64,000 nucleotides of DNA from Ferruginibacter sp. (GTDB lineage Bacteria > Bacteroidota > Bacteroidia > Chitinophagales > Chitinophagaceae), in assembly GCA_039921685.1 (NCBI GenBank), contig JBDSBG010000005.1, positions 260 through 64,259 on the forward strand. Direction: 5' to 3'. The position numbers and the translations under genes are program-made. Every line of letters starts with the position of its first letter. Positions within the stretch are counted from its first letter, which is position 1. The notes under the pieces were generated by a model. The model ran no database searches and had not been told where the DNA came from. It saw only the letters and a program-made list of their open reading frames with translations. Positions 30,899 to 49,221 of the stretch are shown piece after piece.

Positions 30899-31282
30899 AT
30901 GTACGCAGCAATTATTGGAGTCGTATCCGGCATTGTAAGTATAATTACAATTGCCCTGTTAAGGTTGGATAAACCAATTATGTATGGACTCATACTTTCA
31001 GGTATAGGATTTCTTTATGTAGGTTTTACCTGGACAGACTTGCAATCTCTTATCACTAACTGCATCCAGGCACTCGTTTTCGTATTCCTCGCTTATTTAG
31101 GAGTTAAGAAGAATTTATATTTTTTAATCGGGGGTTATTTTTTACACGGACTTTGGGATATGGTGTACGATCTGTTATTTCTGCCGGGATTAATTCCACC
31201 GCATTACGATTGGTTTTGCCTTACGATTGATTTTACAATGGGGTTGTATTTATTTCTTGTTAGAAAGTCCCTCAAAATTTAA
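30899..31282 (+). CDS. Small multi-pass membrane protein (DUF6010-like)
   Basis: Four hydrophobic helices with YVGF, LHGLWD and PPHYDWFC motifs. Confidence 0.6.
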   Translation: MYAAIIGVVSGIVSIITIALLRLDKPIMYGLILSGIGFLYVGFTWTDLQSLITNCIQALVFVFLAYLGVKKNLYFLIGGYFLHGLWDMVYDLLFLPGLIPPHYDWFCLTIDFTMGLYLFLVRKSLKI

Positions 31283-31297
31283 AGAAAACAAAAGTAT

Positions 31298-31870
31298 ATG
31301 CCGCCGATTATAATGCTCATCAAAAATATGGTCTGCCTTCGCTGTATGCTCACGGTTGAAAATATTTTTCGCAACGAATCAATCGATTACCAGGCGATTA
31401 GCCTTGGGGAAGTACGCCTGGAGCAGGTCTCTCCAGAACAGAAAGCCCGGTTATCAAAAAGCCTTGAAAATGTTGGGTTTGAGTTAATAGATAACCGCGG
31501 TAGCGCACTTATTGAAAAAATAAAACAGCTAATTATTAAACGTGCCCGCAATGATGCAAATGAAGAAGATAGTAAAACTAAATTATCAAATTATCTTTCT
31601 GCAAATGTTAATCATGAATACAGCTACCTCAGTAGTCTTTTTTCTTCCGTAGAAGGAAGGACAATTGAAAATTATTTTATAGAACAAAGAATTGAAAAGG
31701 CAAAAGAATTGCTTGTTTACGGGCAAATGACATTATCACAAATAGCTTTTGATCTTGAATATAGCAGCACAGCTCATCTCTCCGCCCAGTTTAAAAAGGT
31801 TACAGGTTTAACGCCATCTTTCTTTAAAGAATTAAGAACAGTAAAGCGTAGATTCCTGGATAATGTTTGA
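31298..31870 (+). CDS. AraC-family regulator with N-terminal CxxC (HMA-like) metal-sensing domain
   Basis: IKNMVCLRC N-terminus; C-terminal IEKAKELL..TLSQIAFDLEYSSTAHLSAQFKKVTGLTPS. Confidence 0.9.
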   Translation: MPPIIMLIKNMVCLRCMLTVENIFRNESIDYQAISLGEVRLEQVSPEQKARLSKSLENVGFELIDNRGSALIEKIKQLIIKRARNDANEEDSKTKLSNYLSANVNHEYSYLSSLFSSVEGRTIENYFIEQRIEKAKELLVYGQMTLSQIAFDLEYSSTAHLSAQFKKVTGLTPSFFKELRTVKRRFLDNV

Positions 31871-31955
31871 GGAAAGTTTCATTTGCAGCCCGGTTTTTAC
31901 AAACCAAAACACAGTGAACAACTATCGAAAGCCGCTGAATAAAATCCCAAAATTA

Positions 31956-32011
31956 TATAACAGTTACCCAAAGCGATGTAACATCGCCACTGCCTTCCAG
32001 GTTTACTTTTG
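31956..32011 (+). promoter_or_regulatory. Promoter with TRTAA-N16-TGTAA direct repeat and TAnnTTTG -7 box (copy 1)
   Basis: TATAA 31956, TGTAA 31977, TACTTTTG 32004; includes the inverted repeat GCGATGT-A-ACATCGC. Confidence 0.7.
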
Positions 32012-32043
32012 TGATATCAAATAACAATTAAAAAACAACAATC

Positions 32044-32169
32044 ATGAAATCAGTAACAACAACAAACAAAGCAATCGAAACAGCAAACAATGTAAAATGC
32101 AGCAATCCAACATGTACCTGCGTTGATTGTAGATGTGGTTCTACATGTACCTGTGCAAATTGCAGGTAA
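32044..32169 (+). CDS. Metallothionein-like peptide, copy 1 (41 aa, 8 Cys)
   Basis: MKSVTTTNKAIETANNVKCSNPTCTCVDCRCGSTCTCANCR; own -7 promoter box, A-rich leader and downstream terminator; not in the supplied ORF track. Confidence 0.85.
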   Translation: MKSVTTTNKAIETANNVKCSNPTCTCVDCRCGSTCTCANCR

Positions 32170-32192
32170 GCTATTGCAAGAAACACGTAAGG

Positions 32193-32219
32193 GCCGTTCC
32201 GGAAGGACGGCTTTTTTTT
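32193..32219 (+). terminator. Intrinsic terminator after metallothionein-like copy 1
   Basis: GCCGTTC-CGGAA-GGACGGC stem followed by T8. Confidence 0.85.
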
Positions 32220-32327
32220 ATTTCAATTGTTTGCTTTGCTGCGGCAAGCTTCTCCCTTTCGTCTTCACTAGTCCAAACCGAATCACCAAAATAAAAGTTG
32301 CTTTACCATGTTTTTATCCCAAAATTA

Positions 32328-32383
32328 TATAACAGTTACCCAAAGCGATGTAACATCGCCACTGCCTTCCAGGTATACTTTTG
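32328..32383 (+). promoter_or_regulatory. Promoter with TRTAA-N16-TGTAA and TAnnTTTG (copy 2)
   Basis: Duplicate of 31956-32011 at +372 bp. Confidence 0.7.
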
Positions 32384-32415
32384 TGATATCAAATAACAAT
32401 TAAAAAACAACAATC

Positions 32416-32541
32416 ATGAAATCAGTAACAACAACAAACAAAGCAATCGAATCAGCAAGCAATGTAAAATGCAGCAATCCAACCTGCACCTGCGTTGATT
32501 GTAAATGTGGTTCTACATGTACCTGTGCAAATTGCAGGTAA
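32416..32541 (+). CDS. Metallothionein-like peptide, copy 2 (41 aa, 8 Cys)
   Basis: MKSVTTTNKAIESASNVKCSNPTCTCVDCKCGSTCTCANCR; three conservative substitutions versus copy 1, all Cys retained. Confidence 0.85.
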   Translation: MKSVTTTNKAIESASNVKCSNPTCTCVDCKCGSTCTCANCR

Positions 32542-32555
32542 GGTCGCTCAATTGT

Positions 32556-32587
32556 AAAAAAGGCCGTTTAATTGAGGCGGCCTTTTT
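32556..32587 (+). terminator. Intrinsic, potentially bidirectional terminator after copy 2
   Basis: A-run, GGCCGTTT/AGGCGGCC stem, TTTTT. Confidence 0.8.
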
Positions 32588-32702
32588 ACTCTTAGAACAT
32601 CGCTGGTTTAGCTTGTCCTTTTTTGACATCAGGTTGTCTTTTAACCGCTATCCTGCAAACTTATCTTCGCATAAGAAATGATTAAACCAAGCAACAAAAA
32701 AA

Positions 32703-33128
32703 ATGATCATGAAAAAATATATAATCTTACTGATGATTTATCTACTGGCAGTTGTAAGTGGCTTCGCCCAGTCAAATAGTTCATCCAGCCGAATAAAAGG
32801 CATCTATTGGTCGCCAAAGAAAGACGCAAAAATTGAAATCTATGAAAAAGGAGGCAAGTATTTCGGCAAAACCATTTGGATAGCAACGCCTGGCAAAGAC
32901 AAAAATAATCCGGTAGAAACATTAAGACAAAGAGACTTGTTGGGTTTAAACCTGCTTGCTGGTTTTACATTCAACGATGAGGTATATTCCGGTGGTGAGG
33001 TGTATGACCCAGGCAACGGGAAAACTTATGATTGTAAAATGTCCTTAAATGGTGATCAGCTCAAAGTGAGGGGGTATATAGGTATTTCGCTTTTCGGGCG
33101 TACAGAATATTTCCAAAGAATAAAATAA
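32703..33128 (+). CDS. DUF2147-family secreted protein
   Basis: Signal peptide; YFGKTIW, DKNNPV, GEVYDPGNGKTY, LKVRGYIGISLFGRT motifs. Confidence 0.85.
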   Translation: MIMKKYIILLMIYLLAVVSGFAQSNSSSSRIKGIYWSPKKDAKIEIYEKGGKYFGKTIWIATPGKDKNNPVETLRQRDLLGLNLLAGFTFNDEVYSGGEVYDPGNGKTYDCKMSLNGDQLKVRGYIGISLFGRTEYFQRIK

Positions 33129-33460: not shown

Positions 33461-34375
33461 ATGCAAACAGTAGCTTTTATTATTCCGCCCCATGTTGAGT
33501 TGCTCGACCTTGCTGGTCCCGTCCAGGTTTTTACTGAGGCGAAATTTTATGGGTTTGAAGTTGATATCAGGTTTTATCAATTCAACGATTCACCTGTTAG
33601 TACTGCCGGGCTAGGTTTTGGTGAAATATTAAATTATGCTGAAGCAAAACTAAAAGAGGGAGACTTTGTTTTTATCCCCGGGATGGATTTTGAATATGTG
33701 AACAGCATTTCATTCCGGGCAGAAACAGCATTTTTCAAATGGCTAAAAGAATGTTCTGGTAAACACGTTACAGTTTGCTCAATTTGTAATGGGGCATTTG
33801 CTTTAGGAATGGCAGGTTTGCTTAAAGATACTGAATGCACTACGCATTGGAGAAGAGTAAAAGAATTACAAACCCAATTTCCAACTGCTAAGGTGGTTGC
33901 CGATATCCTTTACATAAAGAGTAATAATGTTTATACCAGTGCAGGCATAAGTGCGGGTATCGACCTGGCACTTGCCATCCTGGAGGACTTAAAAGGCCCA
34001 TTATTCACTCATAAAGTGGCAAGAGGGTTGGTTGTTTATCACCGTAGAAGTGGCCGACACAACCAGCAAAGCATTTACCTGGATTATAGAAATCACATCA
34101 ACCCACAGGTACACGAAGTGCAGGACTACCTTATTGATAATCTCTCGGGAGAAAATGATATTGAAACACTGGCTTCACTGGTGAATATGAGTGCAAGAAA
34201 CCTCAGCAGGGTTTTCAAAGAAAAAACGGGATCAACGATACTAGAATACCTCACACTGTTACGAAAAGAATATGCCAGTACCATGCTAAACAATCCTGAA
34301 TACACAATCGAATACATAGCATCTCAATGTGGTTTTAAAACCGCCCGGCAATTGCAGCGGATACTTAAGAAATAA
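33461..34375 (+). CDS. GlxA-family regulator (DJ-1 domain plus AraC HTH)
   Basis: LLDLAGPVQVF, SICNGAF, TTHW, TSAGISAGIDLAL; AraC C-terminus MSARNLSRVFK..IASQCGF. Confidence 0.92.
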   Translation: MQTVAFIIPPHVELLDLAGPVQVFTEAKFYGFEVDIRFYQFNDSPVSTAGLGFGEILNYAEAKLKEGDFVFIPGMDFEYVNSISFRAETAFFKWLKECSGKHVTVCSICNGAFALGMAGLLKDTECTTHWRRVKELQTQFPTAKVVADILYIKSNNVYTSAGISAGIDLALAILEDLKGPLFTHKVARGLVVYHRRSGRHNQQSIYLDYRNHINPQVHEVQDYLIDNLSGENDIETLASLVNMSARNLSRVFKEKTGSTILEYLTLLRKEYASTMLNNPEYTIEYIASQCGFKTARQLQRILKK

Positions 34376-36369: not shown

Positions 36370-36939
36370 ATGCTTTTATACATAAAAAACATGGTGTGCA
36401 ATCGTTGTATTCACATCGTTGAAGAGGAACTCAACAAGCTCCAATTGAATCCTGTTTATGTTCGCATGGGTGAAGTGAACCTGGCAAAACCTGCCAATGA
36501 AAAACAACTGCAGGAACTTGACGTAAAACTGAGATCCTATGGCTTTGAATTATTGGACGATCAAAAGCAAAAGCAGATAGAGAAAATAAAAAACCTCCTG
36601 ATAAAAAAAGTTCAGACAGGGGAAATAGAAGAACATTTTAGCATTATCCATTTTTTAAGCAACTCGCTTCACAAAGATTATAGTAATGTTTCCCGTTTGT
36701 TTTCAGAAGTTGAAGGTATTACCATTGAACAATTCTTTATTCTGCAGAAAATAGAAAAAGTAAAGGAATTATTGGTTTACGCTGAAATGAACCTTAACGA
36801 AATTTCGTTCCAGTTAGGTTATAGCAGTTCAGCGCATTTATCAGGCCAGTTCAAAAAAGTAACAGGCCTTAGTCCCAGTCATTTCAAAAAGATTGGCGCA
36901 TTACAGCGAAAATCCCTCGACGAAGTAAGCAACAAATAA
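36370..36939 (+). CDS. AraC-family regulator with N-terminal CxxC (HMA-like) domain, second paralogue
   Basis: IKNMVCNRC; IEKVKELL..EISFQLGYSSSAHLSGQFKKVTGLSPS. Confidence 0.9.
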   Translation: MLLYIKNMVCNRCIHIVEEELNKLQLNPVYVRMGEVNLAKPANEKQLQELDVKLRSYGFELLDDQKQKQIEKIKNLLIKKVQTGEIEEHFSIIHFLSNSLHKDYSNVSRLFSEVEGITIEQFFILQKIEKVKELLVYAEMNLNEISFQLGYSSSAHLSGQFKKVTGLSPSHFKKIGALQRKSLDEVSNK

Positions 36940-36940
36940 A

Positions 36941-36996
36941 TGTAAATTATTGCGCAAATCCTGTAATGATTGCAGGAACAGGTCATAGTAGCTTTG
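36941..36996 (+). promoter_or_regulatory. Promoter with TGTAA-N16-TGTAA and TAnnTTTG (third instance)
   Basis: TGTAA 36941, TGTAA 36962, TAGCTTTG 36989: the same 21-bp and 27-bp spacings as at 31956 and 32328. Confidence 0.7.
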
Positions 36997-37014
36997 TATT
37001 CTAAATTAAATACT

Positions 37015-37743
37015 ATGACACATACATATAATATTACCGGGATGACCTGCGGGGGATGCGTTGCAAAAGCTAAAAGTGCATTGCTTAAATTGGGTGATAT
37101 AACCGAGGCAGAAGTACAGCTTTCATCGCCCCAGGCTACGATTACCATGGCCAAGCACATACCTGTTTCATTATTACAAAAAGCGCTCAATAACGCGGGA
37201 CCTTATTCGATTACTGAAACCAACGCTGTTATTCATCATTCCATTGATACTCCGTCAGAAAGTTCTTCCTGGCTGCAAACATATAAGCCCATCCTGATCA
37301 TTGCCGCTTACATTACTGCAATTAGTCTTCTGATTGAGACCCAAACAGGATTTCATTTGGAAAACTGGATGCAGAATTTCATGGCAGGTTTTTTTATAGT
37401 ATTTTGTTTCTTTAAAGTACTCGATCTGAAAGGCTTCGCAGACAGCTATGCTACTTATGATATCATTGCAAAAAGATGGCACGGCTGGGGATATGTGTAT
37501 GCTTTTATAGAACTTGGCCTTGGTATTGCTTATCTCCTGAAGCTTAACCCGCTGTTTACAAATGCGATTACTTTTGTCGTCATGAGTGTTAGTTTAATTG
37601 GGGTGCTTCAGGCAGTATTGAAGAAGCAAAAGATTCGATGTGCATGCCTGGGCGCAGTGTTTAACCTGCCCATGAGTACAGTTACTATACTGGAGGATGT
37701 CATCATGATTGGGATGTCTTTGCTGATGCTCTTGCACCAATAA
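37015..37743 (+). CDS. HMA domain fused to MauE/DoxX-like membrane domain
   Basis: YNITGMTCGGCV HMA motif; TM helices; CACLG motif. Start set at MTHTY. Confidence 0.85.
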   Translation: MTHTYNITGMTCGGCVAKAKSALLKLGDITEAEVQLSSPQATITMAKHIPVSLLQKALNNAGPYSITETNAVIHHSIDTPSESSSWLQTYKPILIIAAYITAISLLIETQTGFHLENWMQNFMAGFFIVFCFFKVLDLKGFADSYATYDIIAKRWHGWGYVYAFIELGLGIAYLLKLNPLFTNAITFVVMSVSLIGVLQAVLKKQKIRCACLGAVFNLPMSTVTILEDVIMIGMSLLMLLHQ

Positions 37744-38019
37744 GCAGTTGGCTACGGAAACTGTGGTTGATTAAACCGATGAACAGGCAAACATAAGCGC
37801 ATCTTGCTTTTACAAATCTTATTTTCGCTTTTTATTATATAAATGTGATACACAACTTTCAATTTATTTCTACGGTTCCAAATGCCAGGGTTCAGCATCC
37901 TCCGGGAGCAGACATTCGGATAACGATCCAGTCTTTCCAGATTTGATTTCAGGCTAAATCTTTGTACCCATGAATGCACATGCCTAAAAATAATTCTATA
38001 ACATAAATAAATCAAAAAG

Positions 38020-38493
38020 ATGAAATCAATATTATTAACTGTTGCTTTATTCGCAACCATATTCGTTCAAAAAACAGTTGCCCAGGATAGCACAAAAAAC
38101 CAGGCTTCTCAATTACTCAGTGCATACTACAGTATAAAAGACGCGTTGGTGAGCAGCAATGCAAAAGCAGCAGCAAATGCAAGCGAAGATTTTATAAAAG
38201 CGCTAAATGCTGCAGATAAGGAAACCGTAAAGGATGAAGCACGCAACGCATTATTAAAAGATGCTGAAGTTATTGCTAAATCCAAAGATCTCAATAAACA
38301 ACGGGAAACCTTTTCCAATTTATCTTCTGGCATGTATGCATTGGCGAAAGCAGTAAAGCTGTCGGCAGATCCTGTTTACCAGCAATACTGCCCAATGAAA
38401 AAAGCATCCTGGCTCAGTAGCAATAAGGCAATTAAAAATCCTTATTACGGCAGCGCTATGCTTACCTGCGGCAGCGTAAAGGAAACACTTTAA
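38020..38493 (+). CDS. DUF3347-family periplasmic protein
   Basis: Signal peptide; YYSIKDALV; YCPMKKASWLS...NPYYGSAMLTCG. Confidence 0.85.
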   Translation: MKSILLTVALFATIFVQKTVAQDSTKNQASQLLSAYYSIKDALVSSNAKAAANASEDFIKALNAADKETVKDEARNALLKDAEVIAKSKDLNKQRETFSNLSSGMYALAKAVKLSADPVYQQYCPMKKASWLSSNKAIKNPYYGSAMLTCGSVKETL

Positions 38494-38566
38494 AAACTTT
38501 TTTGCAGCTAATTCATACTTAACCCTCTTCAAAAAGTTCAGGGCGATGTCATGATAAAAACATACA

Positions 38567-40654
38567 ATGGAGCATTCGCATAATATTTCAACGCCTGAAA
38601 CAGATCATTCAAAAATGAATCATGCTGCTATGCAGCACAAAGCAGGGCATTCATCGGGTATGACTGGCCATAATCATCATGCTATGATGATAGCTGATTT
38701 TAAAAAGCGCTTTTATGTGGTGTTGGTTCTTACGATTCCTATCATGATGCTTTCGACCATGATTCAACATTTTATCGGAATTCATTGGGAGTTTGTAGGA
38801 TCCCAATATGTATTGTTTGCATTGTCAACCCTTGTTTTTTTTTATGGAGGTTGGCCGTTTTTAAAGGGATTGGTTGATGAAGCAAAAGCAAAGAATCCTG
38901 GAATGATGTTTTTAATTGGTTTTGCAATAACAGTTGCTTACATCTACAGCGTCGCAATTGTATTTGGATTACCGGGAATGGATTTCTTTTGGGAACTGGC
39001 CACGCTGATCCTCATTATGCTGTTGGGCCATTGGATAGAAATGAAATCAGTTGCGGGTGCCTCCAGGGATCTCGAATTATTGGTACAATTGATGCCCGCA
39101 GATGCGCACATGGTCATGCCAGGCATGATCCATGATGTTAAAACAGACACATTAAAAATCAATGATATTATTCTTGTTAAACCTGGCGAAAAAGTAGCTG
39201 CTGACGGAATAATACTGGAAGGTGAAACATATTTGAATGAGTCAATGTTAACGGGTGAATCAAAGCCGGTAAAAAAAGTAAAGGGAGATAAAGTTATTGC
39301 CGGAGCTATAAATGGAAATGGCTCAGTCAAAATCACAGTTTCTAATGCAGCTAAAGACTCTTATCTCTCACAAGTGGTGAAGTTGGTGGATGATGCACAA
39401 AATTCTAAATCAAAAACTCAATTGCTGGCCAATACAGCAGCAAAATGGTTAACTGTAATCGCAATTGTAGCCGGGATAGCTACATTTTTATATTGGTACT
39501 TAACAGGCCAGTCTTTGTCATTTGCAATGGAAAGAATGGTTACAGTAATTGTTATATGTTGCCCTCATGCTTTAGGCCTGGCAGTACCGTTAGTAGTAGC
39601 AAGATCAACTGCCTTGTCAGCTAAAAATGGTTTGTTGATTAAAAACCGCACTGCATTTGAAAATGCACGAAAAATAACAACGATCGTTTTTGATAAAACA
39701 GGAACACTTACGATAGGAAAGTTCCAGGTTTCAAAAATTGTTCCGCTCGCTGCTGATGCCGGGAAAATAGAGGGAGCGGGTTCAGGGCTGATGTTAAAAG
39801 AAAAGGAACTCATTCGATTAGCTGCGGCTTTGGAGCAATATTCAGAACACCCAATTGCAACCGGCATACTTCAAAAAGCAAAAGAGTTATCTATAACTAT
39901 TCCCAAAGCAGAAAATTTTAAGGCCATTACCGGTAAAGGTGTCGAAGCGCTTGTAGATGGTAAAAATACAATGGTTGTTAGCCCGGGATATTTAAATGAA
40001 AATAATATCGCAGTTCCGGCTCAGTTTACTGCCAATGATACCGAAACAGTTGTGTTCATAATCGTGAATAAAGAATTAAAAGGCTACCTGGCATTATCAG
40101 ACGAGATCAGGCCTGAATCAGCAGCTGCGATTGAAACACTAAAACAAAATAATATCAGGTCAATTCTTCTCACTGGTGACAATAAGAAGGTTGCAAAATC
40201 TGTAAGCGAAGTGCTGGGGATGGATAGTTTCATTGCAGAAGTATTGCCACATCAGAAGTTGGAAAAAATTAAAGAGTTGCAAAGTAAAGGTGCATTTGTG
40301 GCAATGACCGGCGATGGAGTAAATGATGCTCCGGCATTGGCCCAGGCTGATATAGGTATCGCCATTGGAAGCGGCAGCGATATTGCCGCAGAAACTGCAG
40401 GCATTGTGCTGGTAAACAGCAACCCGATGGATGTTGTGAATCTTGTGTTATTTGGCAAAGCAACATACCGGAAGATGATTCAAAATTTAGCATGGGCAAC
40501 CGGGTATAATATTATTGCGTTACCGTTAGCTGCGGGTGTTTTGTATAATCAAGGCATCTTATTAAGTCCGGCTGCAGGAGCGGTGTTAATGACCGTAAGT
40601 ACAATCGTCGTTGCCATAAACGCGGGATTATTAAAAGTAAAAAAAGGGAAATGA
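38567..40654 (+). CDS. copB: Copper-translocating P1B-type ATPase (CPH, CopB-like subtype)
   Basis: His/Met-rich N-terminus, TGES, CCPHALGLA, DKTGT, GDGVNDAPAL, YN and MTVST TM motifs. Confidence 0.9.
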   Translation: MEHSHNISTPETDHSKMNHAAMQHKAGHSSGMTGHNHHAMMIADFKKRFYVVLVLTIPIMMLSTMIQHFIGIHWEFVGSQYVLFALSTLVFFYGGWPFLKGLVDEAKAKNPGMMFLIGFAITVAYIYSVAIVFGLPGMDFFWELATLILIMLLGHWIEMKSVAGASRDLELLVQLMPADAHMVMPGMIHDVKTDTLKINDIILVKPGEKVAADGIILEGETYLNESMLTGESKPVKKVKGDKVIAGAINGNGSVKITVSNAAKDSYLSQVVKLVDDAQNSKSKTQLLANTAAKWLTVIAIVAGIATFLYWYLTGQSLSFAMERMVTVIVICCPHALGLAVPLVVARSTALSAKNGLLIKNRTAFENARKITTIVFDKTGTLTIGKFQVSKIVPLAADAGKIEGAGSGLMLKEKELIRLAAALEQYSEHPIATGILQKAKELSITIPKAENFKAITGKGVEALVDGKNTMVVSPGYLNENNIAVPAQFTANDTETVVFIIVNKELKGYLALSDEIRPESAAAIETLKQNNIRSILLTGDNKKVAKSVSEVLGMDSFIAEVLPHQKLEKIKELQSKGAFVAMTGDGVNDAPALAQADIGIAIGSGSDIAAETAGIVLVNSNPMDVVNLVLFGKATYRKMIQNLAWATGYNIIALPLAAGVLYNQGILLSPAAGAVLMTVSTIVVAINAGLLKVKKGK

Positions 40655-43299
40655 AAAGATTTAATTTAATAATATTGATACTTACTATTGGTTGTTTTGC
40701 TTCTGCACAGGAGAGGCGAGGCGAGGATATGCCAAAATTGGGAACCAAAAATCAACTTCCTGTTACGTATACCTGCCCGATGCATCCCGAGATACATGCA
40801 AGCAAACCAGGCAATTGTCCCAAATGCGGGATGCCACTGGTGAAAGAAAAAACGAAAGCGAAAAAACCAGTTCCCATTCCTAAAAAACAAGAAGTCGTTC
40901 AATCCGCGAGTAAAGACTCCGTAAAAAAAGAGCCTGGCGCTATTGATATGCAAATGCCCGCAATCGATAGTTCCATGAAAAAACAACCCATGGAGGAAAT
41001 GAAAATGGATGATGCCGATTCTGGTATTGACAATTCCGATTTGGAAAATGCTAAAAAGAACCTGGGTTCTCTAAAGATGATTTCATTCAATAACTTACCA
41101 CATACGGTTCGTTATGATCTATACATAAAAGATACTGTCGTAACATTTGGGAAAAAGAAAAAGAGGGCCATTGCAGTCAATGGGCAGATACCCATGCCTA
41201 CCTTAACTTTTACAGAAGGTGATACAGCAGAAATTTGGGTGCACAATGAGATGAATGAAGAAACTTCTTTGCATTGGCACGGGTTGTTTTTACCAAACCA
41301 GTATGACGGAGTTCCTAATCTCACCCAAATGCCTATCAAAGCTCACACAACCCATTTGTATAAATTCCCGATCATACAACATGGCACACATTGGTATCAT
41401 AGCCATACAGAACTACAGGAACAAATTGGCATGTATGGAATGTTCATTATGAACAAACGCCAGGACTGGGATATACCCACATTGCCCCTTATCCTGAGCG
41501 AGTGGATAGATATGAACCCAAAAGAAGTGCATCGCAGTTTACATGCTGCGACTGACTGGTTTGCTGTGCAAAAAGGTAGTACACAAAGTTATGCGGAAGC
41601 AATTAAACAGGGCCATTTCAAAACAAAAGTAAACAATGAATGGAAGCGCATGAATGCAATGGACCTTACGGATGTGTATTACGATAATTTCCTGGTAAAT
41701 GGCCAGAATCAATTGGAGTACAAATCTTATAATCCAGGTGTAGATGGCCAGGCGTTAAGGCCACTAAAAGCCGGCGACAAAGTTCGATTGCGCATTGCAA
41801 ATGGCGGCGCATCCGATTACTTCTGGCTTTCTTATGCAGGAGGGAAAATTACTGTTGTTGCTACAGATGGGAATGATGTTGAACCGGTGGAAGTTGACAG
41901 GTTGATCATTGCCGTATCAGAGACATACGACGTGATCGTTACCATTCCAGACAATAGGAGCTACGAATTTTTAGTAACACCTGAAGATCGTACAAAGCAT
42001 GCTTCCTTATGGATTGGCAACGGTGAAAAAGTTGCTGCTGTAAAATTGAAACGTCCTAAATATTTTGCAGGCATGAAGATGATGAATGAAATGATGGACA
42101 TGAAAGGAAACATGATCGAAATGGAAGGTATGAAAATGGAAAATCAAGTGATGGATATGAATACCGTTATGTATCCCGAAATCACTGGCCCTGAAAATCC
42201 TAACGATGCTCCTGGTACAAATGAACACAGTATGCCGGGCATGTCCACGGCGGCCGAAGGCATGCCCGCTGACATCATTTCCCTGAATTATACTATGTTA
42301 AAAGCCACGGAAAAAACGCCGCTTCCTGCCGGCCCACTGCGGGAACTCAAGTTTGACCTAACGGGAAACATGAATCGCTATGTTTGGACCCTGGATAATA
42401 AAACCGTTTCAGAAACTGATAAGATACTTATTCAGAAAGGTGAAAACGTGCGTATTATTTTATACAACAACAGTATGATGCGGCATCCTATGCACCTGCA
42501 TGGTCACGATTTCAGGTTGCTGAACGGGCAAGGCGAATATTCTCCGTTGAAGAACATCATAGATATCATGCCAATGGAACGAGATACCCTCGAGTTCAAT
42601 GCAAATGTATATGGCGATTGGTTTTTTCATTGCCATATTTTATATCACATGATGAGCGGGATGGGCCGGGTTTTCACTTATAAAGACCAACCGCCAAATC
42701 CCGAAATCCCAAATCCTAAACTTGCGCAAAGAAAATTATTTTCAGATGACCGTGAATTTCATTTAATGGGCCGCGTTGGAATAGAAAATAATGGAAGCGA
42801 CGGTGAATTAATGTTTGCCCAAACGCGGTGGAAAATAAGCACCTTGTGGCATTTAGGTTATCACGATATGCACGGTTACGAAAGTGAAACGATGGTGGGC
42901 CGTTACATAGGGCGCATGCAATGGTGGTATCCTTATATTGGATTTGACTATCACTATAAAATGGAAGGCGGCCCGAAAAATATTTTTGGGAATGAAGAAA
43001 AAAACTGGTTCGGCCAAAAGAGTAATAAAAATAACCGGAAAACAGTAATCGCGGGTGTAGCCTACACCTTACCGTTATTATTTACTGCTGACGCCCGAAT
43101 TGATGGAAACGGAAAGTTGCGCTTCCAGCTTGGCAGAGAAGATGTACCTGTTACCAAACGTTTGCGATTCAGCATAATGATCAATACCGATAAAGAATAC
43201 ATGGCTGGATTTCGGTACATCCTTACAAAATACATTTCTCTTTCAACTCATTATGATAGTGACATGAGTTTGGGCGGGGGGATAACAATAACTTATTAA
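40651..43299 (+). CDS. Multicopper oxidase with N-terminal heavy-metal-binding domain and C-terminal barrel-like region
   Basis: YTCPMHPEI..PGNCPKCGMPL; copper sites HWHG, WYHSH, HPMHLHGH, HCHILYHM; Met-rich linker; aromatic-ending beta-rich C-terminus. Confidence 0.92.
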   Translation: MKRFNLIILILTIGCFASAQERRGEDMPKLGTKNQLPVTYTCPMHPEIHASKPGNCPKCGMPLVKEKTKAKKPVPIPKKQEVVQSASKDSVKKEPGAIDMQMPAIDSSMKKQPMEEMKMDDADSGIDNSDLENAKKNLGSLKMISFNNLPHTVRYDLYIKDTVVTFGKKKKRAIAVNGQIPMPTLTFTEGDTAEIWVHNEMNEETSLHWHGLFLPNQYDGVPNLTQMPIKAHTTHLYKFPIIQHGTHWYHSHTELQEQIGMYGMFIMNKRQDWDIPTLPLILSEWIDMNPKEVHRSLHAATDWFAVQKGSTQSYAEAIKQGHFKTKVNNEWKRMNAMDLTDVYYDNFLVNGQNQLEYKSYNPGVDGQALRPLKAGDKVRLRIANGGASDYFWLSYAGGKITVVATDGNDVEPVEVDRLIIAVSETYDVIVTIPDNRSYEFLVTPEDRTKHASLWIGNGEKVAAVKLKRPKYFAGMKMMNEMMDMKGNMIEMEGMKMENQVMDMNTVMYPEITGPENPNDAPGTNEHSMPGMSTAAEGMPADIISLNYTMLKATEKTPLPAGPLRELKFDLTGNMNRYVWTLDNKTVSETDKILIQKGENVRIILYNNSMMRHPMHLHGHDFRLLNGQGEYSPLKNIIDIMPMERDTLEFNANVYGDWFFHCHILYHMMSGMGRVFTYKDQPPNPEIPNPKLAQRKLFSDDREFHLMGRVGIENNGSDGELMFAQTRWKISTLWHLGYHDMHGYESETMVGRYIGRMQWWYPYIGFDYHYKMEGGPKNIFGNEEKNWFGQKSNKNNRKTVIAGVAYTLPLLFTADARIDGNGKLRFQLGREDVPVTKRLRFSIMINTDKEYMAGFRYILTKYISLSTHYDSDMSLGGGITITY

Positions 43300-43493
43300 T
43301 TGCGATGCACTAATCCTTTATCAACACACCCGGTCAAACGCTGTATCGAAGGAAGTACATGGCGAATAAACATGAATGCAATTCTTTTCTAAAACATTGC
43401 TTACATTGTGTTCTCTGCTGAACTTATGCAAGATTATCTGTGCTGCAAATGCGCTTTTAGCGGGATTTTTAACGGGAAGGTTAAGCCAGGCTT

Positions 43494-43847
43494 ATGTACA
43501 CAAATAAAATGCTGAATGATAACCCAAGGTTGACCAGCATCAAAATTATTCATACCCTTGTATGGATTTTTTTTAATGTGGTGATTTCTTACATGCTATA
43601 CGCAGTGCTTATTAATAAAATGGACAAATGGCTTTGGATAGGATATGCATTGATCCTGGCTGAAATTATAACACTCCTGTTCTTTAAATTATCATGTCCC
43701 ATTACAATCCTCGCACGCAGGTATTCGAATTCAAGGAAAGCAAATTTTGATATATACCTTCCTAACTGGCTTGCCAAATACAACAGGGTAATTTACGGCA
43801 GCGTTTTGATCGTCGTTATTTTTATAACAGTGTTTCGATTGTTATAG
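43494..43847 (+). CDS. Small membrane protein of unknown function
   Basis: Three hydrophobic helices, CPITILARRY and FDIYLPNWLA motifs. Confidence 0.6.
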   Translation: MYTNKMLNDNPRLTSIKIIHTLVWIFFNVVISYMLYAVLINKMDKWLWIGYALILAEIITLLFFKLSCPITILARRYSNSRKANFDIYLPNWLAKYNRVIYGSVLIVVIFITVFRLL

Positions 43848-43967
43848 TGTAAAATGCGACTACTAAGCTTCTAGCCGATACTGTGAATTGTGTAACTTTT
43901 AATTTGACCAGGGCGCTGTTTACCAAAGCCAATCTAACCTGGAATTTTTTTCAGGAAGCTAGGTATG

Positions 43968-44100
43968 TAATACCAATTAGATATTAATACTTGTCTGTCA
44001 GCCTGAGCTTGTCGAAGGTGATCTTCCTAACTAACCCGGCTTTGACAAGCTCAGCCTGACAATTCTTCGGTGGTGCAGCTTTAATTTCTATTTGGTATAA
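43968..44100. mobile_element. MITE-like element enclosing a REP-like hairpin
   Basis: Terminal inverted repeats TAATACCAATTAGATATTAA (43968-43987) and the reverse complement of 44081-44100 match 17/20; internal inverted repeat 43996-44017 / 44040-44061 (GTCAGCCTGAGCTTGTCGAAG type) matches 20/22. Confidence 0.55.
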
Positions 44101-44258
44101 AATGAGTATTCAACAGATTCCTTCATCAGGAGGAATGATTAAGGTACGGACCATTAATATACCATAAACTACCTTCCTTATTTACCGATAAAAACCGCAC
44201 AGTACAACAAATTTTCCGTCGTCAGTTTATACCGCTTTAATAATAATATTATATCTTA

Positions 44259-44723
44259 GTGATTATGGTAACTATAACTAGTCATACAGAATTTGAAGCT
44301 TATTTAGGAAAAGAATTGGGTGTTTCTCCCTGGCATACAATTTCACAGGGCCAGATCAATCACTTTGCAGATGCTACCCTGGATCATCAGTGGATACATA
44401 CGGATCCCGAGCGGGCGAAAAACGAAAGTCCTTTCAAAGCAACGATTGCTCATGGATATCTTACGCTTTCACTTGTTCCTTTTTTTTGGAAACAAATAGT
44501 AGATGTACAAAATGTGAAAATGGAAGTTAATTACGGCATTGAAAGTTTAAAGTTTGGACAGGCAGTGCTTGTTGACAGCGAGGTTCGTTGCCGTGTATCA
44601 TTGGCATCGATCATTAACTTAAGAGGTGTTACCAAAGCAACGCTGTTTATCCAGTTGGAAATAAAGGACCAGCCTAAACCTGCTTTTGCAGGTGATGTTG
44701 TATTTCTATACCATTTCAAATAG
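44259..44723 (+). CDS. MaoC-family dehydratase
   Basis: FADATLDHQWIHTDPERA, TIAHGYLTLSL, NYG..SLKF motifs. Confidence 0.9.
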   Translation: MIMVTITSHTEFEAYLGKELGVSPWHTISQGQINHFADATLDHQWIHTDPERAKNESPFKATIAHGYLTLSLVPFFWKQIVDVQNVKMEVNYGIESLKFGQAVLVDSEVRCRVSLASIINLRGVTKATLFIQLEIKDQPKPAFAGDVVFLYHFK

Positions 44724-44774
44724 TTCCGTATATTTTTTTGTTTCTAAATGATCATGTTTCCGGGGAATGTGATC

Positions 44775-45446
44775 TCAGTTCCATGCCTGCACAATTCGTT
44801 CGATGGTCCAGTAAAAACTTACAACAGCAATAAGTATTGACACTGGATACACAACTTTGTAGCGGTACCAGGTTTTATTCTTCAAAGGAAAAATGACCAG
44901 GCCGAAAAGCAGGCTGATCAACAAAACCTGGCAGACTTCTATACCAACATTAAATACCAGTATGGAGGTGAAGAATTTATCCCGGGGCAAACCGATCTCA
45001 TTCAGGGAACTGGCGAATCCCATCCCATGTATTAATCCAAACAGGAATACCAGGATAACCCGCCATGGCTTTAACTCCCTTAGTATAAGATTTTCGAGTG
45101 CAACAAATACAATGGATAAAGCAATGATGGGTTCAATCACCGGGCTGGGGGCCACTACAATTCCTTTCATACACAATGCAAGTGACACAGTGTGCGCAAC
45201 AGTGAATGCCGACGCCTGGTAAACAATTGATCTTAGTTTTGTATTGATAAGGCAGATGCCAATAATAAACAGCACATGATCCAGTCCTTCAGGTATTATA
45301 TGATTGAATCCCAATTTGAAATAATACCAGGACACTTCATGAATTGGAGCATTCTCTAAAGCATAATTGATCGTGTGCCCGTAACCGGTAAGGGCCAGGA
45401 ATAAAAAAAGTATTGAAATTGAAAATTGCTTCTTTATCTTTTTCAT
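44775..45446 (-). CDS. HupE/UreJ-family membrane protein
   Basis: LGFNHII..GLDHVLF, AFTVAHTVSL, EPIIALSI, FGLIHGMGFA, FNVGIE; start at 45446 overlaps the TPR stop (TAATG). Confidence 0.88.
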   Translation of the reverse strand: MKKIKKQFSISILFLFLALTGYGHTINYALENAPIHEVSWYYFKLGFNHIIPEGLDHVLFIIGICLINTKLRSIVYQASAFTVAHTVSLALCMKGIVVAPSPVIEPIIALSIVFVALENLILRELKPWRVILVFLFGLIHGMGFASSLNEIGLPRDKFFTSILVFNVGIEVCQVLLISLLFGLVIFPLKNKTWYRYKVVYPVSILIAVVSFYWTIERIVQAWN

Positions 45447-46792
45447 TATTTTTTTGCAAGCGATTGGGTACATTTAATTTTAATGTCTTCAGGGATGACA
45501 GGATCGTTCAATAAACCTTCCTGGATCAATTGCTGCCCTTTGGCTGTATCACCGTGCTGCATGTATATCAATCCCGCAATGCAAACCAGTGATGGATTAT
45601 TGCTTTGGGTTACAAAAGCCTGGTTTATATGAGTGAGTGCTTTAGCGTAATCTTTTTTATTGTAATACACCCAGGCCATTGTTTCATTAACATCAATATT
45701 CTTTGGACGGCGGTTGTATTCTGCCAGTGCATGTTCCAATGCTTTATCGATATTTCCTGTGTGTAAATAAACGTAAGCCATTTCCCGATCTGCATAATGG
45801 CCGATACTTGCATCATTGTTTTCCTTCTTCGCATTGTTACTCATTTCATCGATGAGTACAGCATATAATGAATCTGATGCTGCAGTTTTACCGTTGAGTT
45901 TATAGGATGCAGCGAGGCTTTCTTTTATTCCATAATCATTAATGGATGCATTGGCTAGCTTGTAATAATAAACAGCACTGTCATATTTTTTTTCCGCTGA
46001 AGCCAGTCTTGCAAGTCCGGCAAGCGCATATGCATAGCCGGGCCTAACAGCCAGGGATAGTTGGTATTCAAACAAGGCACTTTTAATGTCGCCGGTTCCT
46101 TCATACAGTTTTCCTAATTGTACCCGGCACCATTCCGTGGATTCCTGTCCTGTTGCGCCGGCAGTTATCGCCATTTTCATTGCGTCTATTGCTCCGGGAT
46201 AGTCACCATGAATTTCTCTTAAATATGCGATGCGGGAGTATGATCTGAGATCCGGGCGGATAGAAACCATTTTGTCAGCAGCAGCTACTGCGGCTGAATA
46301 ATTTCCCATTTCAACATTTCCATCTATTATTAAACCATAAACAAAGGCATTCTCAGGATTTATTTTTTGTGCTGCCTCGGCAGATGCCAGGCCATCAGCA
46401 AAATGATGTTGTGATAAATAAAGTAATGATTTCAACATAAGCGCTTCAAAGTTGGATGCATCTGATGCTAAGATCTTGTTTACAACCGTCATCGCCGCCT
46501 GGTCATAGTAGGCGTTGTTACCCGTTACTCTTGATTCAGAAATATAAGCATTGGCGAGTGCAATCGCGGATTTTGAATCAGTTGGGTTCTTTTTTAGTTT
46601 GGCCAGCAGGTTATCAATATTTTTCCTGGCAAACAGCCATTCAGCATTATTGGCTTCTCCTGATTTACGTGGCAACAATGTATATTCCTTATTCGCAATC
46701 GCTGCTTCCTTGCTCTTATATTTTAATACAACAAAGCCAACTGTAGCCAAAAAAAGCGTGATAAGCGTTATATATAAATAATTTTTTTTCAT
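45446..46792 (-). CDS. Tetratricopeptide-repeat protein with N-terminal membrane anchor
   Basis: N-terminal TM segment then successive TPR helical pairs. Confidence 0.85.
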   Translation of the reverse strand: MKKNYLYITLITLFLATVGFVVLKYKSKEAAIANKEYTLLPRKSGEANNAEWLFARKNIDNLLAKLKKNPTDSKSAIALANAYISESRVTGNNAYYDQAAMTVVNKILASDASNFEALMLKSLLYLSQHHFADGLASAEAAQKINPENAFVYGLIIDGNVEMGNYSAAVAAADKMVSIRPDLRSYSRIAYLREIHGDYPGAIDAMKMAITAGATGQESTEWCRVQLGKLYEGTGDIKSALFEYQLSLAVRPGYAYALAGLARLASAEKKYDSAVYYYKLANASINDYGIKESLAASYKLNGKTAASDSLYAVLIDEMSNNAKKENNDASIGHYADREMAYVYLHTGNIDKALEHALAEYNRRPKNIDVNETMAWVYYNKKDYAKALTHINQAFVTQSNNPSLVCIAGLIYMQHGDTAKGQQLIQEGLLNDPVIPEDIKIKCTQSLAKK

Positions 46793-47030
46793 TTTAGTTG
46801 TTTTTTATATTTAAGGGGTAATGATGTGCTGGTAGTTTGAGTATTTGCAATTGTTATTTGGTATTGAGCGTGTTGTGCATTTGACAAATAGAGTTCTTTG
46901 GAAGATATCGCTTCCGACAAGCCCGCGTGGCGGTTCCTGCCAGGCCGAACTTGCCGAACAGGTAGAAGCGATACACATAGGAAAAAATATTTTCATTATC
47001 ACAACACGCTAATATTATTATGAAACGAAG

Positions 47031-47059
47031 GGAGGTTATTTGATATTCAAATAACCTCC
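47031..47059. terminator. 13-bp perfect hairpin downstream of the DUF4331 gene
   Basis: GGAGGTTATTTGA-TAT-TCAAATAACCTCC. Confidence 0.6.
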
Positions 47060-47067
47060 GGTTGTTT

Positions 47068-49221
47068 TTATCCCTTCACAACACGAAGTGTTTGTTTTAC
47101 TTCGCCATTTTTAGAAACTTGTATAAAATAGATGCCTTTTACTAAATTCTTTCCATTAAAAGACTGGGTATAAGTTCCTGCATTTTGTTTTTTATTCACC
47201 AATGCAGTTACAAATTTTCCTTGTTCGTCAAACACAGAGATACTTACCTGTGTTGGAGATTCAACACGATATTGAATGGTAGTGCTTTCAACAAATGGAT
47301 TGGGTGATGTATTTGCAAAAATCTCAGGTGCTGCCAGGTTAAGCGTTTTACCAGCAGTTGGATTTACATTCCCATAGTTACCACGTTGTGTTGATCTGGG
47401 TGCAGGTGCGGTTCCGCAATCACAGTTATGAGTACCCGCCCATGGAGTTTGAACGTAGGGGAATACTGATTTAAATCCTGTATCATTTGCTTCAACTCCT
47501 GTGCTGTAAGTTAATACATTTACAAGTTGTGGCGTAACCGGGCTGGCACTTGTTGCAGGATTGTAGTCATCATACCACAAACCAATTGCTGCCAGTACAA
47601 CACCACCAACCGCCTGCAACTCTATTCTCGTTACATCATCTTCAAGCCTTCTTCCATTGGGAAATCCATCCATGTTGGGGATAAACTGGATGTCGGTAGT
47701 TGTATTAAATCGTGAATCAGTAAGGCCCAACACTGCTGCGCTAACCAGTCCTTCTGAACTAAAATCAGGAGAATTTCTTGGTGTTGCTGGTACAGCCATA
47801 TTTAATCGCAACATGTCACCACCATTTGGTAAGAAGTTATTGATAAATGGTTTTCCCGAAGCAAGTGGGTTTCCTGCTTTTCCAGTTGCCAACTGGTATG
47901 GAGCAAGGTTTGGAACACCTGTATGAAATATCGGCCAAAGATCTACAGAGCGTGGTTGATTGGCTGCCGGCAATAACAAGCTTCCGAAATTTGCTTCGCT
48001 CAATGCTGTGCCATCTAATGCAGCATTTCCTTTTAAACCATATAAACCATTTTGTCCATTGGCAAATCCAAATGCTCCCAATGAATTCTTTTGTATTCTT
48101 AATGGCGAAAATGCAGGAACGGCAGTACCAAATTGTGCATCATCCATGTACAGCGCCAGTTCCGGGTTGTAAAAATAATTTCCAAAAGTGCTGATGTTTG
48201 CAAGATCCTGGTATGGTGTAAGGCGGTTCCAAAGATCTTTGTTTCCAATGGGCACCACAGCTTCATTGGTCAAAGGCATGCCGAGCCTTGAAACCTGGAC
48301 CCATGGGCCGGAATGAGTAACACCATTGTTATCACGATCATCATCGTTAAGCAGGATAAGCCTGTCATGATCACTGCTGGTTCTTGATGGCCTGATATCA
48401 TTTAGTACAGTAATTTTTTGCCTGCTTGCAGAAGCCCATACGCCAATCACATAATTTGGATCAAGAATGCTGCTGCATTGACTGATTGAATGATGATCTT
48501 TTTGTAAAGTTGCCACATCTATTTCCATTGCGATGGTAGAAACGTTTGTACATTTCAATCCATCAACAGTTTGCGAAGGGCCCTGGCGTGGAGCATCACC
48601 AAGATCGAAGATACCACCGAGGTCAACAAAGAACGGATCATCAACGGGCCCGGCAAAAACCTTTTCACCAGTTCTCGTTGTCTTGATTGCCTGGGTCATC
48701 AAAGTTTCATAGTCAGGTGCGTTTAAGCCTACAGGTGAGCTAATTGAACGTGGGCCAATGTTCGGTGGAGGTACAACTCCTTTTGTAAGAATGGTTGAAA
48801 AATATCTTCCTCCATTTGTGCTTCTTTCTACCGTATAACTGGTTTTAAGATTTTCTTTTCCCAATCTTATATTGAAAAAAGTAGTAGGATCCTCATTTTG
48901 TCTTTTAAAGTTGAAACGATAAATGATATCATCACCGTTGGTGTTGATATTATTATCAATGTGAATTTCATACCGTACATCTTCGCTGAAGTGAAAATAG
49001 TTTGGCCCTCCCTGTGGTGCCTGGAATGGAATGTAATTGGCAATGATGACGATCTTGTTAGGATCATTAGGGCTTTTGAAAGCATAAACATCCGTATTGT
49101 CGGCAAGGGGATCATCAGCGATCATTGGCGCTTCCCGGTGGCTGGAAGCAAACGCCGGGATGGGAAACATGTTCACCAGCATCAGGCACGAAAGTACCGT
49201 TGCATAAATTTTTCTTTTCAT
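47068..49221 (-). CDS. DUF4331-family protein with T9SS type A sorting domain
   Basis: ASSHREAP..DNTDVYAF, GPVDDPFFVDL, QVSRLGMPLTNE, GFPNGRRLEDDV; C-terminal SPNPF...KGIYFIQV...LRVVKG. Confidence 0.88.
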   Translation of the reverse strand: MKRKIYATVLSCLMLVNMFPIPAFASSHREAPMIADDPLADNTDVYAFKSPNDPNKIVIIANYIPFQAPQGGPNYFHFSEDVRYEIHIDNNINTNGDDIIYRFNFKRQNEDPTTFFNIRLGKENLKTSYTVERSTNGGRYFSTILTKGVVPPPNIGPRSISSPVGLNAPDYETLMTQAIKTTRTGEKVFAGPVDDPFFVDLGGIFDLGDAPRQGPSQTVDGLKCTNVSTIAMEIDVATLQKDHHSISQCSSILDPNYVIGVWASASRQKITVLNDIRPSRTSSDHDRLILLNDDDRDNNGVTHSGPWVQVSRLGMPLTNEAVVPIGNKDLWNRLTPYQDLANISTFGNYFYNPELALYMDDAQFGTAVPAFSPLRIQKNSLGAFGFANGQNGLYGLKGNAALDGTALSEANFGSLLLPAANQPRSVDLWPIFHTGVPNLAPYQLATGKAGNPLASGKPFINNFLPNGGDMLRLNMAVPATPRNSPDFSSEGLVSAAVLGLTDSRFNTTTDIQFIPNMDGFPNGRRLEDDVTRIELQAVGGVVLAAIGLWYDDYNPATSASPVTPQLVNVLTYSTGVEANDTGFKSVFPYVQTPWAGTHNCDCGTAPAPRSTQRGNYGNVNPTAGKTLNLAAPEIFANTSPNPFVESTTIQYRVESPTQVSISVFDEQGKFVTALVNKKQNAGTYTQSFNGKNLVKGIYFIQVSKNGEVKQTLRVVKG

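Follow-up and report, generated by a model that had tools for sequence, protein, structure and literature searches.

The window analysed here, a stretch of 64,000 nucleotides (64 kb) from contig JBDSBG010000005.1 of a Ferruginibacter sp., carries two tandem genes for a Cys-rich peptide of 41 residues, directly behind the gene of an AraC-type transcription regulator whose N-terminal sensor domain resembles HMA metal-binding domains. The peptide is metallothionein (MT)-like, has a Cys unit of the fungal type and a new type of dedicated regulator, and stands outside every curated MT family. It is probably a previously unnamed bacterial metallothionein, which with the HMA-AraC protein next door would form a sensor-plus-sponge module for the buffering of metal. 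The wider proposition, in which it belongs to a widespread family of Cu-thioneins in bacteria, as yet unnamed and centred on Bacteroidota, with a fungal Cys unit and HMA-AraC activators as a new class of sensor, is more tentative and falls a little short of an even chance. The initial annotation of the window had seen a metallothionein family of Bacteroidota, missed by gene callers, in a metal locus; a conserved MT-like family behind a CxxC-containing AraC regulator is borne out, and the metal locus, the constant failure of gene callers and the confinement to Bacteroidota are not.

Two tandem peptide genes in a duplicated unit

Both genes lie on the + strand, copy 1 at 32044..32169 (identified by reading of the open reading frame (ORF) and by family membership) and copy 2 at 32416..32541 (by reading of the ORF and as the called protein P0001). 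Each ORF has 126 bp and translates as MKSVTTTNKAIE(T/S)A(N/S)NVKCSNPTCTCVDC(R/K)CGSTCTCANCR, with 8 Cys within the last 23 residues (8/41, or 19.5%) and no His, Phe, Tyr or Trp; positions, translations and residue counts are exactly as first annotated. The Cys scaffold occurs twice in the 64-kb window, against 0.00 occurrences expected. Each ORF forms the end of a tandem direct repeat of 227 nt with 97% identity and a spacing of 372 nt (31944..32170 and 32316..32542, + strand, by repeat search and alignment), which extends from about 100 nt before the ATG to the stop codon and comprises operator boxes, promoter, leader and ORF. The two copies differ at one position in the 100 nt upstream and at five in the ORF, two of these synonymous (ACA>ACC, TGT>TGC) and three conservative (T13S, N15S and R30K in copy 2 relative to copy 1), with every Cys retained, again as annotated.

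Each copy further has the promoter box and the terminator that had been assigned to it. A Bacteroidota -7 element, TACTTTTG (TAnnTTTG), can be read at 32004..32011 upstream of copy 1 and at 32376..32383 upstream of copy 2 (+ strand). The sequence 3' of the stop codon is divergent between the copies, and a GC-rich hairpin with a U-run is present in both: the terminator of copy 1, at 32189..32220 (+ strand), was found by a terminator scan (fold -17.8 kcal/mol, z=-2.84); that of copy 2, at 32554..32589 (+ strand), with a GC stem at 32562-32582 followed by the U-run, is overlooked by a simple terminator scan and seen by folding (-17.4 kcal/mol, z=-2.06). As a separate observation, the start context AAAAACAACAATCATGAAA of both peptide genes reappears with 84% identity at 32696-32714, at the start of the next gene (DUF2147).

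An assembly artefact can be excluded as the source of the duplication, because its junction is reproduced in an independent Logan assembly (rhizosphere run), where one contig runs from the end of copy 1 through the spacer into the beginning of copy 2, and because both copy-specific segments are close to flank depth (9.4 and 10.9, with flanks at ~13 and stretches common to both copies at ~2x). Copy 2 at least was called by a gene caller; the cluster of P0001 comprises 2 sequences, both from a single contig of 85,283 nt. Since only five differences separate the two ORFs, evidence for selection must come from the wider family.

A family with selection on its Cys core

Searched through a word index, 5.8 billion protein clusters yield solely the window's second copy, and an exhaustive HMMER search of 1.84 billion representatives returns five similar peptides of 37-41 aa, together with long repeat proteins on the same scaffold. 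Profile searches yield 37 called clusters, every one of them named 'hypothetical protein', among them RefSeq WP_264520904.1 (Flavobacterium sp. N1994). At the DNA level, a scan of a metagenome collection with a degenerate pattern for CxCxxCxCGxxCTC, taken together with other loci, gives at least 78 short ORFs for at least 71 distinct peptides of 31-42 aa, in at least 73 loci besides the window; these totals are lower bounds, and fractions of 73 loci or 71 peptides refer throughout to the family matches listed. A called counterpart at >=90% identity exists for 13 of the 71 DNA-level peptides, all of which are in the query profile. Gene callers thus usually miss these genes, as had been proposed, but not always, as the 37 called clusters attest. 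Among isolate-genome contigs, a scan for the scaffold pattern is dominated by (TGC)n-type repeats, with one true locus (L045) among the matches listed, and a scan with patterns from the variable N-terminal half only gives no related locus; the distribution across isolate genomes and cultured species is poorly sampled by these scans.

The consensus of the family begins with MK, followed by 13-17 variable residues and the core KC(D/S)NPNCTC(E/V)(N/D)CNCGSNCTC(K/A)NCK (in short form MK..KC.NPNCTC..CNCGSNCTC..CK), its Cys residues being spaced as C-X4-[CXC]-X2-[CXC]-X3-[CXC]-X2-C. In composition it has 20.5% Cys, 14.5% Asn, 12% Thr and 9.7% Lys, with 0.6% aromatic residues and 0.3% His. Several Cys columns are preset by the search pattern, and their invariance is therefore no proof of conservation; conserved columns outside the pattern are the Cys at -5 (67/75), the Cys at +16 (58/75) and the N-P-N motif. 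For 127 pairs of sequences from different loci, the proportions of synonymous (pS) and non-synonymous (pN) differences in the core are 0.73 and 0.11, respectively, giving a pN/pS of 0.157, or 0.235 once the pattern-fixed columns are excluded; in the N-terminal tail the ratio is 0.81, and indels in the tail preserve the reading frame. The low ratio of the core compared to the tail, together with the frame-keeping indels, is the mark of a translated peptide in which the Cys core, under purifying selection, is the functional part. The family postulated from two nearly identical copies accordingly has conserved homologues, with selection acting on the peptide. Synonymous divergence is lower in the N-terminal codons (pS 0.34) than in the core (0.73), in spite of near-neutral amino-acid evolution there; these codons may be under an mRNA-level constraint on the A-rich initiation region, which has no Shine-Dalgarno sequence.

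These substitution patterns also speak to whether the ORFs are Cys-codon leader peptides of an attenuator, or untranslated RNA or DNA elements. A short ORF rich in one amino acid and followed by a terminator hairpin does have the classic look of an attenuator, but the non-Cys residues G32, S33, T36, N21 and P22 are conserved with synonymous turnover, Ser at a conserved column is encoded by AGY as well as by TCN, and the core combines a pN/pS of 0.16 with a pS of 0.73. Moreover, the downstream genes vary by locus and are not those of cysteine biosynthesis, each tandem copy has a full promoter, and an Rfam scan of the whole window gives no family. Given the codon-level selection on non-Cys residues and the variety of downstream genes, an attenuator or non-coding element is excluded, to the extent that we allow it hardly any probability.

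The family is centred on Bacteroidota, as the initial annotation had it, but extends to GC-rich contigs from outside this phylum, where the AraC gene is lacking. A shorter subfamily is found there, MTGNITKGGCDNPDCTCENCNCGSGCTCGKD (L140, L149, L160, L144 and L135, at 65-67% GC), without AraC or boxes, which adjoins a gene for 5-formyltetrahydrofolate cyclo-ligase in three of these loci; no 6S RNA was found beside these members by Rfam or ARAGORN. A longer variant, MAKCSNP(H/K)CKC(V/I)NCKCGDNCTCT.DKCNCP.EC..., adds three Cys to the core (L143, L152, L155, L173, L204, L215 and L237; P0047).

Two copies of the peptide gene are found not only in the window but also in L045, L121 and L158, with differing unit boundaries. 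To the 227 nt of the window (97% identity, spacing 372) correspond 284 nt in L121 (93%, spacing 307), about 400 nt in L158 (80-84%, spacing 408) and about 420 nt in L045 (71-89%, spacing 1743), where a DJ-1/AraC gene separates the copies and the duplication took along a remnant of the 3' end of AraC. Since the paralogues are mutually closest in three of the four genomes (the exception is L158) and the unit boundaries differ, the pattern points to recurrent duplication or gene conversion. Amplification also occurs within single proteins, as in P0044, a natural two-unit fusion of 51 aa, and in the multi-unit L226.

The Cys unit recurs outside the peptide family. As C.NP.C.C..C.CG..C.CG, followed by VVCDPCK, it forms 3-11 tandem repeats at the N-terminus of eukaryote-like proteins of the ThiF/MoeB type; such and related repeat fusions are P0002, P0003 and P0006 and those at L244, L242, L184 and L212, one of them fused to a PBP2/NMT1-like domain. 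Anti-sigma factors of the zf-HC2 type, of ~105 aa, have a Cys-rich tail, LCGCRTGGPCLCGDCQCGPHCTCH, with CxCxxCxCGxxCTC (L163, L169, L186, L192, L201, L209 and L221, all GC-rich), which may serve in metal or redox sensing, and the DUF1326 proteins of L139 and L225 have the scaffold at their N-terminus (ACSCACDPCACGDRCTC). With occurrences in eukaryote-like repeat proteins and in anti-sigma tails, the unit may be an ancient, mobile metal-cluster module common to the domains of life.

The HMA-AraC regulator and its predicted operator

The gene directly upstream of the peptide genes, at 31298..31870 (+ strand), encodes AraC1, a predicted metal sensor and activator assigned by Pfam (HTH_18), by the profile of its N-terminal domain and by synteny. 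Its C-terminal part is a helix-turn-helix domain of the AraC type (HTH_18, E=4.7e-17; HTH_AraC, E=8.3e-8), and its N-terminal 60 residues are highly conserved (L-L-V-K-N-M-V-C-x-R-C...). A 23-sequence profile of this N-terminal domain, compared to the sequences of the PDB, finds HMA metal-binding domains in 27 of 29 matches, ATP7B being the best (E=1.7e-9), followed by ATP7A, CopZ, CopA and ZntA; over ~58 aligned residues, the NMVCxRC of AraC1 falls onto the GMTCxxC metal site of the HMA domains. An AlphaFold single-sequence model of the regulator reaches a predicted local distance difference test score (pLDDT) of 43 and is unusable. The annotated position of the peptide genes directly behind a CxxC-AraC gene is thus confirmed, and the sensor domain is HMA-like.

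By tblastn with the window neighbours, a regulator of the AraC1 type is present in 43/73 loci, usually 97-112 nt upstream of the peptide gene on the same strand and sometimes just downstream. Where low-GC (Bacteroidota-type) loci offer at least 700 nt on both sides, it lies within 320 nt of the peptide gene in 25 of 33, and for loci of this type the synteny with HMA-AraC genes anticipated from the window is therefore borne out. The copper genes of the window, on the other hand, begin 4 kb from the peptide genes, behind unrelated genes, and its P-type ATPase, HMA-MauE and DUF3347 proteins have no match at E<=1e-8 in any of the 73 related loci (tblastn). The window's 'metal locus' is for this reason not the conserved context, contrary to the initial annotation; the conserved context is the HMA-AraC sensor and not a metal-efflux locus.

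Two direct-repeat boxes, CCCAAAnnnATnTAAC, form a predicted AraC site upstream of each peptide gene. For copy 1, where they were recognised by conservation, they lie at 31946-31961 and 31967-31982 (31946..31982, + strand), with starts 21 bp apart; for copy 2 a box search places them at 32318-32333 and 32339-32354 (32318..32354, + strand). The window holds 4 exact occurrences of the box, where 0.02 would be expected, and all of them belong to these two promoters. In an alignment of 67 distinct upstream regions the layout is rigid: two boxes, a 21-nt gap and TAnnTTTG, from where an A-rich leader without a Shine-Dalgarno sequence runs for about 27-37 nt to the ATG. With boxes called at <=6 mismatches in 24 specified positions, both are present in 44 of the 59 low-GC upstream regions considered, and all 44 pairs are spaced by 21 bp; the -7 element is conserved in 50/59 loci, the gap between it and the second box measures 21 nt in 38/40, and 2.5% of control windows reach such box match quality. 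A palindrome upstream of the genes, GCGATGTAACATCGC, was considered and set aside: it is not conserved as a palindrome, and the direct repeat is the conserved feature.

The usual arrangement for AraC/XylS activators is one of direct repeats with a 21-bp period abutting the -33 region, and it is from this geometry that we infer the adjacent regulator to be an activator of each peptide gene, acting through the predicted boxes. Where the regulator is not adjacent (for example in L193 and L131) the boxes are retained, which suggests control in trans at such loci.

A paralogous HMA-like/AraC regulator in the window, AraC2 (36370..36939, + strand; 46% full-length identity to AraC1), lies outside the conserved module. 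Immediately after it come HMA-MauE, DUF3347, a P-type ATPase and a multicopper oxidase that has a heavy-metal-binding domain; such surroundings support metal sensing as the role of this class of regulator. Two boxes of the form CAAA...TGTAA, 21 bp apart and followed by TAGCTTTG, can be made out by eye downstream of AraC2. A further link to metal comes from three loci (L150, L166 and L219) in which a multicopper oxidase lies directly 3' of the peptide gene (Cu-oxidase_3, E=1e-33 to 1e-37), and from L248, where an HMA-domain protein takes this position. In a locus of Flavobacterium sp. N1994 (L247, CP109999.1) the peptide gene precedes HMA-AraC, and genes for cbb3 oxidase assembly (ccoNOQP, FixG, FixH), a copper-requiring system, lie just upstream of the pair. 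The metal-related genes of the window itself span 36370-51475; besides the second HMA-AraC, HMA-MauE, DUF3347, P-type ATPase and oxidase, this stretch holds HupE/UreJ_2, a TPR protein, a DUF4331 protein with a tail for the type IX secretion system (T9SS) and a TonB-dependent receptor.

Taken as a metallothionein, the peptide would be a small cytoplasmic protein with a variable, hydrophilic tail of ~18 residues ahead of a conserved core of 23 residues, 8 of them Cys; it is read as cytoplasmic because the N-terminus has no hydrophobic stretch. The core would fold around a metal-thiolate cluster, most likely of Cu(I), with Zn or Cd as possible alternatives. The metal-loaded HMA-AraC would bind the two boxes abutting the -33 region and activate, rather than repress, transcription of the peptide gene, so that sensor and sponge as a pair would buffer excess cytoplasmic metal; duplication of the gene would presumably raise its dosage.

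The neighbours of the peptide genes leave room for a different use of the thiols, in which the peptide would be a buffer against oxidants or reactive electrophiles, and the CxxC of the regulator a redox or electrophile switch. Two genes of the window are frequent syntenic neighbours, each in 22/73 related loci: a DUF6010 membrane protein (30899..31282, + strand, by Pfam) and a DJ-1/PfpI + AraC (GlxA-like) regulator (33461..34375, + strand, by Pfam), the latter mostly just downstream of the peptide gene and mostly 70-86% identical. The DJ-1/PfpI-family neighbours would suit a thiol buffer, as would the thioredoxin-like gene near the peptide genes in the window and the fact that most loci have no metal transporter. 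This explanation is nonetheless unlikely, as the sensor domain aligns specifically with metal-binding HMA domains, the four loci with a multicopper oxidase or HMA protein directly 3' of the peptide gene and the paralogous regulator at the head of a copper operon point to metal, the closely set CxC/CxxC motifs are of a kind typical for metal clusters, and a thioredoxin-like gene is present in 0/73 related loci. The DJ-1/PfpI+AraC regulator is generally better conserved (mostly 70-86% amino-acid identity) than HMA-AraC (about 47-81%).

HMA domains typically exchange metal with partner proteins (CopZ/CopY, Atx1), and the strictest association of the peptide gene, in either gene order, is with the regulator gene itself. 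Both facts would fit a peptide that acts as regulatory partner or metallochaperone of HMA-AraC, passing metal to or from the sensor and tuning the response, rather than as a bulk sink. Against this improbable role, 8 Cys in 23 residues are far more than a chaperone site needs, the recurrent duplications and multi-unit variants (P0044, L226) speak for capacity, and each gene has its own promoter and strong terminator, as would be expected for a highly expressed output.

The same neighbourhood makes it very doubtful that the ORFs are precursors of ribosomally synthesised and post-translationally modified peptides (RiPPs), with an N-terminal leader and an enzyme-modified Cys-rich core. In size and layout, an N-terminal segment before a Cys-rich C-terminus, they do resemble some RiPP precursors, and a radical SAM gene lies ~1.5 kb away on the opposite strand in L247; but across the 73 loci no maturase, protease or exporter is conserved beside the genes, the sole constant partner is a transcription factor, and the putative leader is variable (pN/pS 0.81) and the core conserved, the reverse of the usual pattern.

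Metallothionein membership and comparison with known systems

The peptide has the properties by which MTs are recognised (Kagi / Binz-Kagi): a low mass (<~10 kDa; 41 aa in the window, 31-42 aa in the family), a high proportion of Cys arranged as CxC and CxxC (19.5% in the window, 20.5% in the family) and few or no aromatic residues and His (none in the window; 0.6% and 0.3% in the family). An AlphaFold model of the peptide with 35 homologues has a pLDDT of 58.9, no secondary structure and no confident fold. The model does not speak for a stable fold of the disulfide-rich or zinc-ribbon kind, and the absence of an autonomous fold, as would be expected for an apo-MT, is compatible with metal binding without being evidence of it. 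The only Pfam families touched by any member are MT families, all of them below threshold: Metallothio_Euk (PF12749, gathering threshold 22 bits) matches 7 of 82 members, the best at E=0.021, and Metallothio_Pro (SmtA/BmtA, family 14) gives no match at E<=10 (10 members) or E<=1 (82 members). A relative of 123 aa, built of CNCNPCNCG(T/S)NCTCG repeats (L226:873-1247), passes Metallothio_Euk with 22.4 bits against the cutoff of 22. The comparison with MT models, proposed as a check of the initial annotation, hence comes out in its favour insofar as only MT families are touched and against it insofar as, this relative excepted, no member exceeds a curated threshold. A search of PDB sequences with the peptide retrieves only a ferredoxin at E=1, a chance match.

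Several further observations weigh against a metallothionein under a metal sensor. No significant family is found for the peptide in Pfam or NCBIfam, the window peptide having no Pfam match at all; no curated MT model accepts a single-unit member at its threshold; and, in short Cys-rich sequences, composition inflates the statistics of similarity. On the side of the regulator, the sensor domain is below threshold for the Pfam HMA model, which does not recognise it, CxxC domains are capable of redox sensing too, and the regulator is present in 0/7 GC-rich loci. Apart from the regulator, conservation extends to neighbours of the DJ-1/PfpI type and to DUF6010 but not to metal transporters, and in most loci a metal gene is absent from the vicinity. 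Nor were RNA reads found for any member searched: no RNA runs holding the window sequence were found, metatranscriptomes linked to L190 give zero reads, and for L181 there is one weak run. Many apparent RNA matches of L160 were discarded, as they trace to a low-complexity GC-rich stretch (L160:8362-8435) that shares 31-mers with unrelated RNA runs; a 94%-identical contig over the L160 peptide gene has a flat, DNA-like depth.

Pfam, NCBIfam and the literature searched hold no entry that names the family, and the literature searches found no Bacteroidota MT described, no study of HMA-AraC regulators and no paper on a fusion of HMA to an AraC helix-turn-helix domain. Few bacterial MT families are known (SmtA/BmtA, MymT), and Bacteroidota are dominant in soil, rhizosphere, water and gut; if the wider proposition is true, a Cu-thionein with its HMA-AraC would be the first MT-plus-sensor module for this phylum. 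Binding of metal by the peptides would add a layer of cytoplasmic buffering to copper or zinc handling in Bacteroidota, would identify the signal of a large, uncharacterised class of regulators, and would offer a compact two-gene unit with a defined operator for use in biosensing or bioremediation. The family also illustrates that standard gene calling drops many 40-residue genes (13/71 distinct peptides were called).

Among bacterial systems, the nearest in organisation is that of cyanobacterial and pseudomonad SmtA/BmtA with the SmtB repressor, where an MT gene likewise stands beside the gene of a metal sensor dedicated to it; a CxCxxCxC stretch is also present in the N-terminal part of SmtA. 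SmtA/BmtA differ, however, in their use of His ligands and aromatic residues, in their zinc-finger-like fold and in their length of ~55 aa, whereas the peptides here have no His; their genes are under a repressor of the ArsR family, whereas the partner of the peptide is of the AraC type and a predicted activator. Mycobacterial MymT is a small, Cys-rich bacterial peptide that binds Cu(I) and was missed by annotation until found experimentally; it has a different arrangement of Cys, contains His and has a different regulator, and no sequence similarity to it was seen in any search made. The sensor domain of the regulator resembles HMA sensors and chaperones (CopZ, the N-terminal domains of ATP7A/B, ZntA) over ~58 residues, with CxxC aligned on CxxC, and differs from them in its fusion to an AraC helix-turn-helix domain, in NMVCxRC in place of GMTCxxC and in scoring below the Pfam HMA threshold.

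The Cys pattern resembles that of fungal family-8 Cu-thioneins (Neurospora crassa MT, P02807; the 7-Cys unit of Cryptococcus CnMT1/2 and Tremella TmMT) more than that of SmtA/BmtA, and the likeness to eukaryotic motifs noticed in the initial annotation stands. Fungal family-8 MTs have the pattern X2-[CXC]-X5-[CXC]-X3-[CXC]-X2-C-X3, and evolve by tandem amplification of the unit, which in the 7-Cys form of N. crassa and Agaricus Cu-thionein makes Cu5 clusters (PMC4755600). Like them, the peptides are tiny and have no His or aromatic residues, the arrangement [CXC]-X3-[CXC]-X2-C is identical from the second CXC of the peptide onward, the local sequences are close (CNCGSGCSCSNC in the fungus, CNCGSNCTCKNC in the Bacteroidota peptide), and the unit has been amplified in the peptide family too (gene duplications, P0044, L226). 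Unlike them, the peptide has a spacer of X2 after the first CXC instead of X5, one more Cys, four residues upstream, and an N-terminal tail of 18 residues without Cys, and it occurs in bacterial hosts with a different regulator. It thus departs from the full family-8 pattern, and would work like that family without being filed as a member. An hhalign comparison with the N. crassa Cu-MT gives a probability of 95.8% over 17 columns, and BLASTP gives 9/14 identities, both inflated by composition, so that homology and convergence are not separated by these statistics; the common Cys unit makes convergence versus common origin a testable question.

In yeast, a copper-activated transcription factor, Ace1/Cup2, drives CUP1, the gene of a small Cu-thionein, whose copy number varies by tandem duplication. 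The regulator fold is unrelated, the host eukaryotic and the Cys pattern different, but the two systems are alike in the tandem duplication of a small MT-like gene with a metal-sensing regulator, which in the bacterial case is a prediction. By analogy to CUP1, selection for dosage is a plausible force behind the duplication of the peptide genes.

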